This document shows, one piece after another, positions 39,713 to 51,089 of a DNA stretch of 64,000 bases. Both the position numbers and the translations under genes were made by a program. Within the stretch, counting starts at the first letter, position 1. Each line of letters opens with the position of its first letter. The notes under the pieces were generated by a model. The model was not told the origin of the DNA and made no database searches. It worked only from the letters and a program-made list of their open reading frames with translations. Where the stretch lies: the sequence record PQ850614.1; one strand, 5' to 3'. This DNA is from Escherichia phage LorandFenyves_Bas91.

Positions 39713-41743
39713 TTAACCTCTATTCAATGAACATTTAGGGGAATTACAATAAACTTGATTCATAGAACCAAGCGTACAACTTTCAGCATCGCGCCACGGA
39801 ATCTGCTTAAAACACTCTGAGCAGTATCCGAGGGTTGACCACATGGCTTTGGTGAAGTCAGTGCTTCGGTTTCCGTCGAAGCTGACAACAGTTTTGCGGA
39901 GAGCTGTTCGTGATTCAGGAAACACACCTGCTTTCTCAGCAGGTTCCTCCTTTTTTGGCTTAGTTGAGATTGCAAAAATACTGTTGCTACGTTTCTCAAC
40001 ATAAGCATCAACAACATCCTCCAGAGTGATGCCTGTCTGTTTCGCTGAGGAAGGTAATACAGTCATACGACCAATCATTTCTTCAGTTACACGTAAAGCA
40101 AATTCAGGACGACGGGCGTTTGTTGTATCTGTTGCTTTAATCCATACATAACCATCTTTGATCGTAGCATTAGATACTTTCTTCTTTACTTCTACAGCGC
40201 AGACTTTACAGATATCTTCTCCACGAAGACGACTAAGCTCATCATCGAACTCATTCTCTGTTTTAACTTCACCACAGATTTCACAAACACCAATAGGAGT
40301 CTCCTCCTCTTCTTCCTCTTTAGGTTTAGTCAAACCTTCCAGACATTCAGGATGCCAGTAGCACTGATATGCGAAGACTGCTTTAGGTGCATCCTTCCAG
40401 TCAATGTGCTTGTCACAACCACCACAATCACCATGAGAGTGTGCTTCCCAGAATTTACGAGTGATAGTAACGCCATTCTTGTTGACGAAACTATCATTCA
40501 TATCAAAAGGGATATCATCATCGAAGTCAGCAGTAGTTGACTCAGGCTCCTTTTTCTCCAGAGACGGGTCAACAAAACGACCTGCTGTGATCACTAAACG
40601 AACCATAGCATTAACTTCGGAGATGCAGGATACTGTCCCACGGTAAACAATTTTAGGGTCTTTCAGTGCGTCCTGATAAGCCTTAATGTCTACGTTATGA
40701 ACATCACCTTCGATGTATTCTTGAGATTTCTCATCGTAGATATAGCCAATCATCTTACCACGAGAAGGAACAGCACCAGCAGTCGCATAAGGAACAAACT
40801 CATGTGGTGTGATTTCCACAGTCATATCGCGGCGGATATCAATGTTTCGATCGCTTGCGATTTTGTTTTGACTTACCACTGCGTTTCTTCGACGAACGTC
40901 TGCCGCTGTCACACCCGGCTTCGTGTCGTAAGGATTGCTTGTATTGCTTTTTGAGGAACTTTGATAGTTGCTTTGGCTGTAGTTGTTCGAGTAATAACTG
41001 CCCCAACGATTGGCTACCGTAAAAACCGGAAGCTCGTGGGCGACCTCTTCAACCAGAGTCATGCTGTTGTTTGACATATCAAAGATATATTCTGTACCAA
41101 CTTTACATTCAAAATGCTCGTCAATACGGTTCTTATGGGACTTAGAACGCTTCAGAATCCACATCAACATATCTTCTTCAGAAGCACCAAACCAATCTCT
41201 GTTACAACGTGCGAGATGGAAAGGACGCTCTTCGTTACGAATGATATGAAGGCGGTTATCAGAAGCATCATGCCAGATTAAGGTGAAAGCACCATCCAGC
41301 TTTTGAATAGTCTCTGCTGCACCAATAGTGTTAATAGAGTGGCAGATGTTCTCACTGTCTACCTCGAAGTTTTTGCTGTCAGGTAACAGATCTTGGTCCA
41401 TCAAGGTTCCATTATGAACCAGAGTGATGTTACCATGTTGGAAAGGATGGGCGTTCTTGGCGTTAACTGCACCTTTCGTTGCATGACGACTGTGACCAAC
41501 AATCCATGAAGGTGCTACAGTGTAAGCTGTTTCACCAGTGGTGTGCTTCTTGTACTCATCTTGTAGGATGAATGCGAAAGAAGGAAGAGCTTCTTTATAA
41601 GTGAAGACTTCCTTAGTACTTTTACGCTGACCAAAGATACCGGAGGAATGTTGTCCTCGGAATACTCCAGCATAAAAGAGTTGGTTAAATACGTCTAAAT
41701 CAGTGCTTGACAGATTACCGCCAGCTAATACGATGCCACAAAT
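39713..41743 (-). CDS. class-II (Ntn) glutamine amidotransferase domain protein with Cys-rich C-terminal region; probable ATT start
   Basis: Frame is open ~340 nt upstream of the track start and encodes (start)CGIVLAGG...GHSRHATKGAVNAKNAHPF (GlmS-like). The only codon between the upstream stop and Cys is ATT, with AGGTGG ~8 nt upstream. Confidence 0.65.
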   Translation of the reverse strand: MCGIVLAGGNLSSTDLDVFNQLFYAGVFRGQHSSGIFGQRKSTKEVFTYKEALPSFAFILQDEYKKHTTGETAYTVAPSWIVGHSRHATKGAVNAKNAHPFQHGNITLVHNGTLMDQDLLPDSKNFEVDSENICHSINTIGAAETIQKLDGAFTLIWHDASDNRLHIIRNEERPFHLARCNRDWFGASEEDMLMWILKRSKSHKNRIDEHFECKVGTEYIFDMSNNSMTLVEEVAHELPVFTVANRWGSYYSNNYSQSNYQSSSKSNTSNPYDTKPGVTAADVRRRNAVVSQNKIASDRNIDIRRDMTVEITPHEFVPYATAGAVPSRGKMIGYIYDEKSQEYIEGDVHNVDIKAYQDALKDPKIVYRGTVSCISEVNAMVRLVITAGRFVDPSLEKKEPESTTADFDDDIPFDMNDSFVNKNGVTITRKFWEAHSHGDCGGCDKHIDWKDAPKAVFAYQCYWHPECLEGLTKPKEEEEEETPIGVCEICGEVKTENEFDDELSRLRGEDICKVCAVEVKKKVSNATIKDGYVWIKATDTTNARRPEFALRVTEEMIGRMTVLPSSAKQTGITLEDVVDAYVEKRSNSIFAISTKPKKEEPAEKAGVFPESRTALRKTVVSFDGNRSTDFTKAMWSTLGYCSECFKQIPWRDAESCTLGSMNQVYCNSPKCSLNRG

Positions 41744-41794
41744 TTTCTAATCCACCTGAAGGGTAAACCCTTTCATCTAATTAACCTTTAAATT

Positions 41795-41815
41795 GTGCCC
41801 CTTTATCAGAGGCAC
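41795..41815 (-). terminator. hairpin after the amidoligase gene (weak terminator)
   Basis: GTGCC...GGCAC stem with a weak T-run on the minus strand. Confidence 0.3.
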
Positions 41816-41822
41816 CCATTGA

Positions 41823-42926
41823 TTACAGCGCTTGCTCTAACTGATTTTCCAGATGGTCTGGAATGTACCCTGTGATATTGCTATCACTGTGACCAGACTC
41901 ACGTAGTAAGTCAAAAATAGCACGAATACGTTGTTCTGGAGCGTGTCTTACTTGAGATAGGTCTGCTGTACGAAGCATAACCAAAATCTCTTGATACAAG
42001 TTGTTAGCGTTCCCTCGAACATATCCAAGGAATCCATAGAAGTCTGACATAAGACGTAAGTCAACAAGAACCTCTCCGTTGGAGTTGGTTCGACGTAAAC
42101 GAATACGACCAGACTGTTCTACTTCATGAGAACGGCAATACAAAACATCACGGGCCATACAATACCCTGAATGCAAATCAGATTCATCCAGATTGTAATC
42201 CAGAGGAAGGTAAGGAAGCATTGGGGCAAATCGTACAGTATTTAAGTGCTCAATAAACTGATCATTGCTCATATCTGCGTTATCTAAAGCCAGCTTCTTC
42301 AACATCAAGAAGCGGTTAACCAGATTGAGAAGTTGACCACGTTTCCACTTAGGCTCACTGATACGGAACTCAATTGAACCGTATTGGGCAAGTGGCAGAA
42401 GGTTCAGAGATGTATATTTATCCCATGAACGAACCAGACGGTTGAAGAATTCTTCACCATCGTAGTTAAATGCGTCAGAGGCATTCATTACCTGTGCTTG
42501 TACCACTGCAAACGCAGGGCAGAAATTGCTACGGTAACGATGGTAGCCTGAACACTTGAACAGCATCTTTTCATAGAAGGTCCAAGCAAGGATGGTCTTC
42601 TTGAGGATATTACTATCAGCATCCCTCATATCCATATGAACGTGAGTAGAGCAACGCCAAGTCCCCTCGGCGTGCGATTCAGCTACTGCTTCACTCAGGT
42701 TGTTGATAGCGTCTAACAACTCCTGTCCGTTGTAAGGTCGTGAACATACCATTTCACAACCGTTACGCAGGGAACCATCCTCTGTGCAATCCCACATATC
42801 TGCTTCGATATGTTCAGAACCTTCGAGTTCAAGCTCAATACCGACACCGCACTGAAGTGCAATTGAACTATGCGCCTCAGTTAAACGACCTTCTCGATAT
42901 CCAAAAGTTTGCGCTACAGTTGTCAT
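41823..42926 (-). CDS. amidoligase (glutamine-synthetase-like fold)
   Basis: GVGIELELEG, EDGSL..GCEMV and STHVHMD resemble carboxylate-amine ligase motifs. Confidence 0.55.
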   Translation of the reverse strand: MTTVAQTFGYREGRLTEAHSSIALQCGVGIELELEGSEHIEADMWDCTEDGSLRNGCEMVCSRPYNGQELLDAINNLSEAVAESHAEGTWRCSTHVHMDMRDADSNILKKTILAWTFYEKMLFKCSGYHRYRSNFCPAFAVVQAQVMNASDAFNYDGEEFFNRLVRSWDKYTSLNLLPLAQYGSIEFRISEPKWKRGQLLNLVNRFLMLKKLALDNADMSNDQFIEHLNTVRFAPMLPYLPLDYNLDESDLHSGYCMARDVLYCRSHEVEQSGRIRLRRTNSNGEVLVDLRLMSDFYGFLGYVRGNANNLYQEILVMLRTADLSQVRHAPEQRIRAIFDLLRESGHSDSNITGYIPDHLENQLEQAL

Positions 42927-43549: not shown

Positions 43550-44356
43550 TTATGCTACCTGAAGGAGTTTGATCTGCTGGTCAGCTTCTTTAACGTTGTT
43601 CCCGTTAATGATTTCATGAAGCTTCTCAATCGGAAGGCGAGAGTGCAATGCCATCAGAGTGGACATATCACACTGCTGAACAACCTTGTCAACCTGATCG
43701 TAAACAAACTTACGGTTTTCACGATCACTAATCCAGAAGTTAGACAGAGAACGGTATTCAATACCATAGTCTTTATAACGGATTGCAGATGCTTTACCGT
43801 AGAGTTCTTTACGGCGAGTATCTTTGTCCATAATTACTGCTGGGAGAGACAGGAAGTAGTCACACAGCACACCCAGCATCATCTGAGTTTGCAGAGTGAT
43901 ATCCAAAGCACCAACTACGCCAAGATGTACGTGACCACCGGCAGTACGAAGTCCCTTATTCTGAGAAGTCGGGGATGGGTTTTTCTGACCAGTGAAGGCG
44001 TTGAAATCAGGAGTGCACCCGAAGATGAACGCTGATTCATTAAAGGTCTTCATCTCTTCTTCAGTGAAGATGTGAGAGCTAACACCCGGAGCTGTTTCCA
44101 TGTCCAGTTTGTTCAGGACATTATTGGTGAGATCAATACCACGTTGCATGTTATCGTTAAACGCTTCAAAACCGCTCTGTGGGTCAATATCAAACTCAGC
44201 CAGTACGTTGTCCTCTTGGAGACGAACATCCTTAGCCAGAGCGATCTTATCGTCCTTAGAGCAGCCTAATAAACCGGCTACAGAAGTGATGATACCATTG
44301 CTAGTACGAACAAACATTTCAGGGTCAGAGCCGATAAGGAATTTGCGCTTAGTCAT
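43550..44356 (-). CDS. second putative amide ligase (COOH-NH2 ligase-like)
   Basis: N-terminal FLIGSDPEMFV and RTAGGHVHLG resemble the ligase motifs of the neighbouring gene; assignment from memory. Confidence 0.4.
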   Translation of the reverse strand: MTKRKFLIGSDPEMFVRTSNGIITSVAGLLGCSKDDKIALAKDVRLQEDNVLAEFDIDPQSGFEAFNDNMQRGIDLTNNVLNKLDMETAPGVSSHIFTEEEMKTFNESAFIFGCTPDFNAFTGQKNPSPTSQNKGLRTAGGHVHLGVVGALDITLQTQMMLGVLCDYFLSLPAVIMDKDTRRKELYGKASAIRYKDYGIEYRSLSNFWISDRENRKFVYDQVDKVVQQCDMSTLMALHSRLPIEKLHEIINGNNVKEADQQIKLLQVA

Positions 44357-51013: not shown

Positions 51014-51089
51014 TGGTCGGGACGGAAGGATTCGAACCCTCGTAAGGCGAGTTAGAAGCTCGCTGCCTGTTCCACTAGACTACGCCCCG
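51014..51089 (-). tRNA. tRNA-Arg (anticodon UCU), CCA encoded
   Basis: Hand-folded cloverleaf: acceptor CGGGGCG/CGTCCCG, D-stem GTCT/AGGC, anticodon stem GCGAG/CTCGC with loop CTTCTAA, T-arm GAGGG-TTCGAAT-CCTTC, discriminator A plus CCA. Confidence 0.85.

Follow-up and report, generated by a model that had tools for sequence, protein, structure and literature searches.

A proposed ATT start for a phage glutamine amidotransferase gene and the recurrence of weak start codons in its enzyme family

In Escherichia coli, infC and pcnB are the two genes with a confirmed AUU start, and AUU, AUC, AUA and CUG initiate translation at about 1–2% of the level of AUG (bioRxiv 10.1101/063800). The thrS-infC junction reads UAA GGU AUU, and reinitiation is held to account for about half of the initiation at infC (PMC3592434). 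For ebpA of Enterococcus faecalis there is experimental support for an ATT start, which attenuates expression (PMC4447247). A phage gene that invites comparison with these systems is the homologue of phiEco32 gene 83 in Escherichia phage LorandFenyves_Bas91, which encodes a predicted glutamine amidotransferase (GATase) and occupies positions 39713–41743 on the minus strand of the stretch analysed here (64,000 nucleotides from record PQ850614.1, referred to as the window). Its initiation codon is in all probability the ATT at 41741–41743.

The phage gene resembles infC in having an AUU served by a Shine-Dalgarno (SD) sequence, in the position of an upstream stop codon 3 nt before the AUU (UAA GGU AUU in infC, UAG AAA AUU in the phage) and in the conservation of the weak codon among relatives. 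It differs in that the product of infC, initiation factor 3 (IF3), itself discriminates against AUU and is thereby autoregulated, whereas the phage enzyme is not known to be connected with initiation. The upstream open reading frame (ORF) of the phage, moreover, comprises only nine codons and is absent from most other family members. Judged from its sequence, gene 83 would be an AUU gene of the infC/pcnB type, as AUU stands at the start position without an in-frame canonical start and is conserved in the orthologues. The likeness to ebpA lies in a rare ATT start that was replaced in annotation by a downstream ATG and that is read as keeping expression low; ebpA is a single bacterial gene, for which neither a recurrent family-wide pattern nor a hairpin module is described.

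Start site, encoded domain and annotation of the gene

The start region and the coding sequence are made up of the following features.

39713..41743, minus strand: complete coding sequence of a class II (N-terminal nucleophile, Ntn) glutamine amidotransferase-domain protein, homologue of phi32_83 (from translation; extent as in phi32_83, EU330206, and SU10_085, KM044272)
41741..41743, minus strand: ATT, the proposed initiation codon (AUU), adjoining the catalytic Cys codon (from sequence and homologue comparison)
41738..41740, minus strand: TGT, codon of the N-terminal nucleophile Cys1 (Cys invariant in our alignments A1 and A2)
41747..41749, minus strand: in-frame TAG, followed by AAA at 41744..41746, minus strand
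41752..41757, minus strand: SD sequence AGGTGG, 8 nt 5′ of the A of ATT (invariant in Kuravirus-type leaders; AGGCGG in Aeromonas phage BUCT695)
41402..41404, minus strand: TTG taken as the start by ORF finders and gene callers (product of 563 aa, lacking the catalytic Cys)

On the minus strand the region reads TTAG ATG AAA GGG TTT ACC CTT CAG GTG GAT TAG AAA ATT TGT GGC ATC GTA TTA GCT. The frame opened by ATT spans 676 codons including the ATT and is closed by a stop codon at 39713–39715 (minus strand). ATG, GTG and TTG are all missing from the interval that separates this TAG from the Cys codon, in which only AAA and ATT are found. An earlier note on this DNA had named ATT as the only codon available directly before the Cys, with AGGTGG about 8 nt upstream, and both statements hold, the distance to the A of ATT being exactly 8 nt.

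The same note had taken the product for an amidotransferase with Cys as the first mature residue, which agrees with the domain evidence. The Pfam models GATase_6 (55 bits, cut-off 27) and GATase_7 (27.4 bits, cut-off 25) match residues ~76–193. A single-sequence search of the PDB with the N-terminal domain gave zero matches; a profile search succeeded and returned the glutaminase domains of GlmS, PurF and AsnB. In the profile search the alignment with human GFAT1 begins at query residue 1 and pairs Cys1 with GFAT1 residue 1/2, and the PHROG 4736 profile matches residues 2–517 with the Cys at profile position 2. In an hhalign comparison with E. coli GlmS, for which an approximate GlmS sequence was used, residues 81–193 were aligned and the N-terminus lay outside the alignment. 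The glutaminase motifs R-x-x-T, NAHP, HNG and DSE are all present, GHSRHATKG, NAHPF, VHNGTL and VDSEN of the window protein pairing with HTRWATHG, NAHP, VHNGII and ETDTE of GlmS. The glutamine-binding and oxyanion-hole residues R85, T88, N110, G111 and D128 are invariant in alignment A1, as are C1, G2, V4, R28, G29, H31, G34 and K49 within the N-terminal 113 residues. By its leading Cys, the family models and the active-site residues the domain is assigned to the class II (Ntn) glutamine amidotransferases, with enzyme activity as a prediction, and the pattern of invariant residues indicates that the N-terminal 113 residues are under constraint at the protein level.

These 113 residues are what initiation at TTG 41404 would cost the 676-codon frame. 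The earlier note was right that the ORF track misses the N-terminus, and its size of about 115 aa is corrected to 113 residues. A product translated from this TTG, or from another internal codon, would lack both Cys1 and glutaminase activity. TTG counts among the canonical starts, and it is the one chosen by gene callers, among others in protein cluster P0001 (211 Kuravirus member sequences) and in the 63.8 kDa model of the SU10 protein. The 113 codons upstream of it are nevertheless open and conserved at the protein level, the catalytic-domain residues from Cys1 onward being invariant, and the TTG itself falls midway through the Ntn fold, within the conserved segment HNGTL-x-DQ. The homologues with an ATG start all begin Met-Cys, and the truncated cluster P0001 lacks a precomputed Pfam domain. 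A start at TTG 41404 or further downstream is thus scarcely credible.

The ATT is shared by the close relatives. The region is 97–98.5% identical to phiEco32-like coliphages (Kuravirus, Gordonclarkvirinae), with 97–98% nucleotide identity of the gene itself to that of phiEco32/SU10. A 69-nt query across leader and start matches 98 phage records, 68 of them with 100% identity and 28 with one mismatch; in EK010, Bas89 and EP335, whose variants were read, the mismatch falls on the wobble position of the Gly codon that follows the Cys codon. The ATT and the 48 nt 5′ of it are invariant in about 96 Gordonclarkvirinae records, and in Suseptimavirus-type relatives the N-terminal domain has only 82–84% amino-acid identity. 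Taken by genus, the codon is found in about 96 independently sequenced genomes of Kuravirus, Suseptimavirus and Nieuwekanaalvirus and in BUCT695; 5 IMG/VR contigs and 7 metagenome contigs carry it as well. At the exact position of ATT, ATG-TGT is found in Proteus phage Privateer, Cronobacter phage GAP52, Salmonella phage SE131, Aeromonas phage 4_4572, Pseudoalteromonas phage HP1 and Pantoea phage TacPo2. The alignment with homologues that the earlier note had called for thus gives ATT in close relatives and ATG at the same codon in distant ones. That note had left a choice between a rare ATT start and a sequencing error hiding an ATG. The first alternative stands, with ATG at the same position in homologues. 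The second, a sequencing or assembly error, had only the rarity of ATT starts in its favor and is refuted by the recurrence of the same ATT in independent records, namely the 98 phage records from many laboratories and platforms together with the IMG/VR and metagenome contigs.

The ATT start call as such is already known, as it is drawn in the founding GenBank record: the coding sequence begins at the same ATT in phiEco32 (EU330206, 2008; gene 83 product ABY52884 / YP_001671828), in its RefSeq copy and in SU10 (KM044272), where the counterpart is gene 85. When the starts of the 128 annotated phiEco32 genes are recomputed, 112 are ATG, 13 GTG, 2 TTG and 1 is ATT, that of gene 83. Full-text searches for phiEco32 or amidotransferase, which did not extend to Savalia 2008 and Iyer 2009, found no literature that discusses or tests the ATT start. 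Other records of the clade mostly carry a “hypothetical protein” or a coding-sequence start placed downstream, the latter also in FBPa8, Asterion and BUCT695. The wrong N-terminus affects the clusters or records of Kuravirus (211), Suseptimavirus (73), Bas89-like phages (49), BUCT695, FBPa8 and Asterion, and it arises because gene callers disallow ATT and ATC starts; the errors are of two kinds, truncation or extension from a GTG inside the SD. The miscalled entries include clusters P0001, P0002, P0003 and P0074 and records ON857932 (FBPa8), PV891806 (Asterion) and NC_070977 (BUCT695).

The remainder of the protein is a C-terminal region of 445 residues (39716–41050, minus strand), for which a Pfam match at E ≤ 0.01 is absent and PDB profile matches are confined to the glutaminase domain. 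The GlmS name “L-glutamine-D-fructose-6-phosphate aminotransferase” (RefSeq, PHROG) is unsupported, since Pfam finds no SIS domains in these 445 residues. Cys-rich motifs with the pattern W-x(4-6)-G-x-C-x2-C-x3-I-x-W-x-DA recur in this region, WEAHSHGDCGGCDKHIDWKDA and MWSTLGYCSECFKQIPWRDA among them, and it holds an additional CxxC...CxxC pair. Cys-rich motifs are also found in BUCT695, and in sequence they look like zinc-binding modules.

An out-of-frame TTG (41739–41741) lies inside ATT-TGT and opens an 8-codon ORF, TTG TGG CAT CGT ATT AGC TGG CGG TAA (41715–41741, minus strand). It shares the SD of gene 83 and could compete with the AUU.

Weak start codons and leader hairpins across the family

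What appears to be new is that the ATT exemplifies a weak-start module that recurs within a family of phage enzymes. The family sample combines two IMG/VR searches with N-domain alignments and the cultured phages and amounts to 150 unique sequences. The codon before the Cys is ATG in 98 of them, ATT in 32, ATC in 10, TTG in 9 and GTG in 1; other codons do not occur. In a subfamily of podophage-like contigs of ~45–50 kb the counts are 38 ATG, 20 ATT, 10 ATC, 9 TTG and 1 GTG. AUU and AUC together account for ~28% of the 150 unique members and for ~38% in one subfamily sample. In most of the ATT/ATC members the frame is closed by a stop 2–20 codons upstream, and the interval contains no canonical start. 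ATT is found in the cultured phages Pseudomonas FBPa8, Klebsiella Asterion and Aeromonas BUCT695 and, among the protein clusters, in P0017, P0023, P0056 and P0061. The enzyme of FBPa8 (ATT) and two further phage enzymes, one with ATC and one with TTG, are ~90% identical to one another.

The same codons recur outside the sample. Five more Logan contigs with a Leu codon before the Cys (P0004, P0025, P0011, P0082 and P0059) all use TTG; gene callers extended the N-terminus in four of these five and called P0004 from the TTG itself. Sorted by amino acid, Leu is encoded by TTG in 14 of 14 cases, Ile by ATT or ATC only and Val by GTG only. The restriction therefore acts on the codon and not on the amino acid, because only start-capable codons occur before the Cys. 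ATA followed by TGY would produce an ATG in another reading frame, which fits the absence of ATA (zero in the family sample). Cellular GlmS, which is subject to the same Met-Cys constraint, served as control and has ATG in all 80 gammaproteobacterial species (80/80).

Weak starts also go with a stronger SD. The mean energy of the SD/anti-SD duplex is -8.5 kcal/mol for ATT/ATC members, -9.3 for TTG/GTG members and -6.3 for ATG members (Mann-Whitney p = 1.5e-9). For the hairpin count, leaders were collapsed to 124 clusters (<80% identity) and a hairpin was counted if its stem had 5 bp or more and ended, on the 3′ side, next to the SD. Such a hairpin is found in 17 of 33 ATT/ATC clusters, in 6 of 81 ATG clusters, where the stems are A/T-rich, and in 1 of 10 TTG/GTG clusters (Fisher p = 5.6e-7); the shuffle null averages 2.8 and never exceeds 8, compared with the 17 observed. 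The hairpin of the window is the following.

41759..41772, minus strand: leader hairpin AAGGG-TTTA-CCCTT, with one base between its 3′ end and the SD (six leader variants, all 100% paired)

One compensatory change, G-C to A-U, is found in this hairpin among the six leader variants. The stems vary between lineages (AAGGG/CCCTT in the window; AACCTC/GAGGTT, AAAGCC/GGCTTT, GAACCT/AGGTTC, GTAGCC/GGCTAC, ACGACA/TGTCGT and CCTGA/TCAGG elsewhere), and the layout is constant: a stem-loop, 1–2 nt, GGAGGAT or AGGTGGAT, ~6 nt, ATY and TGY. With respect to the window protein, the 61% identical P0004 has the hairpin CAGGGGC-TGT-GCCCCTG with a TTG start, the 45% identical P0017 has ACAAGGC-GAT-GCCTTGT with an ATT start, and P0007, P0016 and P0018 (56–44% identical) have an ATG start and no hairpin. 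Among the listed 6-bp hairpins of the whole FBPa8 genome, the GATase leader is the only one in which inspection of the output found the hairpin/SD/start architecture, and the Kuravirus leader 25-mer is unique within the window. Whole-leader folding energies were not better than those of shuffles (z -1.5 to +1.2), and the local hairpin alone is supported. An alternative hairpin that sequesters the SD, GGUUUACC/GGUGGAUU, fits the six leader variants; it shows no compensatory change and is weakened in BUCT695.

Hairpins of the same type accompany weak starts in the leaders labelled L100 (258–272), L103, L067, L085, L082, L086, L185, L274 and L275.

Translational operators in which a hairpin abuts the SD are known, phage T4 gene 43 being an example. 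The likeness consists in a small stem-loop directly 5′ of the SD of the regulated gene. The difference is that in the GATase family the stems and loops differ in sequence between lineages, which makes a shared sequence-specific protein ligand unlikely; we know of no binding protein for the GATase leader hairpins.

By analogy with known near-cognate initiation, translation would start at the AUU through the AGGUGG 8 nt upstream and with the initiator formylmethionyl-tRNA (fMet-tRNA). Deformylase and then methionine aminopeptidase would strip the Met and expose Cys1, as in known Ntn amidotransferases. The AUU would be a deliberately weak start and probably sensitive to IF3. It would form part of a module of a small hairpin, 1–2 nt, a strong SD, ~6 nt, AUU/AUC/UUG and UGY that is common to many phage lineages with this family and whose most likely effect is to keep the enzyme at a low level or at one that is conditionally regulated.

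A more tentative reading, which we hold to be somewhat less likely than not, is that hairpin, strong SD and AUU/AUC/UUG together form a module dedicated to the control of translation and maintained by selection across many lineages of phage. It is suggested because AUY is retained without reverting to AUG, because the stems covary and because the module sometimes lies beside a homing endonuclease. If so, either near-cognate initiation is made efficient enough by the module to be of use, or synthesis tracks the host initiation machinery, for example IF3.

Leader reading frame, reinitiation and the propeptide route

The leader of the window and the region 5′ of it contain three further features.

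41747..41776, minus strand: nine-codon leader ORF ATG AAA GGG TTT ACC CTT CAG GTG GAT TAG (MKGFTLQVD*), in the GATase frame and unique in the window
41777..41794, minus strand: conserved motif AATTTAAAGGTTAATTAG directly 5′ of the leader ORF (in relatives TTTAAATGT(A/T)AA at the same place)
41795..41815, minus strand: stem-loop GUGCCUCU/AGGGGCAC in the intergenic region that separates the leader from the amidoligase gene (predicted fold)

The hairpin and the SD both fall inside the leader ORF, whose stop codon is separated from the ATT by 3 nt. In P0023, P0025, P0056 and P0061 (38–42% identical to the window protein) TAT replaces TAG, and the leader runs into the GATase frame. The fused product that gene callers give in these four lineages is MK(G/E)(F/L)(T/A)LQVDY(K/S)(I/L)-CGIV..., with MKGFTLQVDYKI-C... 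as an example. The leader substitution pair GGG/ACC to GAG/ACT compensates in the hairpin, yet it changes Gly to Glu in the peptide, which argues for a constraint on the RNA rather than on the peptide.

The stop, the 3-nt gap and the AUU have the geometry of thrS-infC (PMC3592434), and ribosomes that terminate on the leader ORF may add to initiation at the AUU by reinitiation. A stronger version holds that the AUU is used mainly by ribosomes ending the nine-codon leader at UAG, with de novo binding of the 30S subunit as a minor route, so that the leader ORF would be the real control point. Since the SD lies in the leader ORF, a terminating ribosome would leave it exposed. Kuravirus, BUCT695, the four fused lineages, P0017 and P0059 all retain an ATG that precedes the hairpin by one base, even though the ORF it opens differs in frame and end point. 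On the other hand, most hairpin-SD-AUY leaders lack an upstream ATG altogether (e.g., FBPa8, Asterion, L067, L085 and L185), and the AAGG that could serve the Kuravirus leader ATG is absent in BUCT695. Should the TTTAAATGTAA-like motif be a promoter, the leader ATG may also coincide with the start of transcription or precede it. Reinitiation as the principal route is therefore considered unlikely, and direct initiation at the AUU is preferred.

The promoter role just mentioned is only a candidate one and derives from the resemblance of the A/T-rich motif to tAATGTAtA. This is the promoter element of phi32_gp36, for which six promoters have been mapped, gene 83 not being among them (PMC8948821). 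The motif reads AATTTAAAGGTTAA in Kuravirus and has equivalents in L006, L008, L017 and L278–L282. A scan for sigma-70 promoters and terminators on the minus strand upstream of the gene gave nothing relevant, and Rfam returned only chance-level matches to the leader, far below the gathering scores. The intergenic stem is altered yet complementary in EK010-type phages, where it reads GGGCGC/GCGCCC (GTGCC/GGCAC versus GCGC/GCGC). It has no T-run and does not pass the terminator scan, and it is not a typical intrinsic terminator.

The leader of BUCT695 differs from that of the window at only 2 of 36 positions, and the enzymes share 35% identity overall and 54% in the N-domain. An intact HNH-HTH homing endonuclease gene lies directly 5′ of the GATase gene in L282 (1009–1497) and L283 (1–292). 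A degenerate remnant is found at the same site in BUCT695 (L017, 2304–2502), and the window has none.

Several points count against the proposed AUU start and the account given of its module. The likeness of the BUCT695 leader is explained equally well by lateral transfer (co-conversion) as by selection. The number of start-codon switches, ~28 by neighbor-joining (NJ) and Fitch parsimony, is a rough upper estimate from a noisy tree, and the statistics count leader clusters as independent though they share ancestry. Proteomics of SU10 detected the protein by 9 peptides against a 63.8 kDa model (PMC4281155); this model is the 563-aa TTG version, and the data are hence silent on the N-terminus. 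Finally, P0023, P0025, P0056 and P0061 encode an uninterrupted 12-residue extension through TAT in place of TAG, and autocatalytic removal of a propeptide is known in class II amidotransferases: many glutamine phosphoribosylpyrophosphate amidotransferases (GPRATases) and PurF-type enzymes, such as those of B. subtilis and plants, lose an N-terminal propeptide in this way (PMC7056826).

The fused leaders and the self-removing propeptides open a different route to Cys1. Translation would start at the leader ATG (41774–41776), which is in the GATase frame, pass the TAG (41747–41749) by low-level readthrough and yield a 12-residue MKGFTLQVD-X-K-I that is self-cleaved to Cys1. Like PurF, the phage protein has the Ntn glutaminase domain and requires that Cys1 be free, with the 12-residue extension confined to the four phage lineages, and readthrough of UAG and initiation at AUU would both be low-efficiency events. 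In the window, however, the extension is broken three codons before the Cys by an in-frame TAG that is conserved in ~98 records, and no suppressor tRNA is encoded, the only tRNA in the window being tRNA-Arg(TCT). P0017 has its upstream ATG out of frame and an in-frame TAG six codons before the Cys, the leader ATG of BUCT695 has no SD, and an in-frame upstream start is absent in most ATT/ATC members of the wider family. The end of a propeptide, moreover, predicts no limit at the level of codons, whereas the last codon before the Cys is limited to the start-capable ATG, ATT, ATC, TTG and GTG. The compensatory hairpin change that replaces Gly by Glu likewise speaks against a conserved peptide. 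Readthrough and self-cleavage are accordingly judged improbable for the window gene, and initiation at the ATT is retained.

Gene neighborhood and implications

The gene lies among the following neighbors.

41823..42926, minus strand: Amidoligase_2 protein, phi32_84 homologue, the upstream neighbor (Pfam PF12224; PHROG 7469); its stop TAA at 41823..41825 is 79 nt before the ATT
43550..44356, minus strand: phiEco32-like COOH-NH2 ligase type 2, phi32_86 homologue (Pfam PF14395)
39477..39710, minus strand: DUF7195 small protein, directly downstream (Pfam PF23825; neighbor of the GATase gene in all relatives examined)
38067..39269, minus strand: RimK-like ATP-grasp ligase, phi32_80 homologue (PHROG 2599, E = 1e-189; GenBank annotation; the Pfam match to Dala_Dala_lig_C is weak and below cut-off)
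36946..37365, minus strand: gamma-glutamyl cyclotransferase-like (GGACT/AIG2) protein, phi32_77 homologue (Pfam PF06094, 63.6 bits)
51014..51089, minus strand: tRNA-Arg(TCT), the sole tRNA in the window, also annotated in phiEco32; not a suppressor

From these predictions the protein is a Ntn glutaminase domain joined to a C-terminal 445-residue region and encoded in an amidoligase/ATP-grasp/GGACT cluster. For the combination of amidoligase and GATase, a role in cell-wall modification was suggested by Iyer et al. 2009, in the form in which that work is cited in PMC10580990.

For annotation, the exclusion of ATT and ATC as start codons loses the catalytic Cys or yields spurious upstream starts in databases. 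If the leaders do form a control module, no larger natural set of AUU/AUC-initiated genes of bacterial type than this family would be known, and it would be a ready system in which to study start-codon discrimination. As a natural data set the family lends itself to comparison and bears on the question of how weak start codons are rendered functional, or what favors them. Tight control of the enzyme level would hint that the activity is dose-sensitive.

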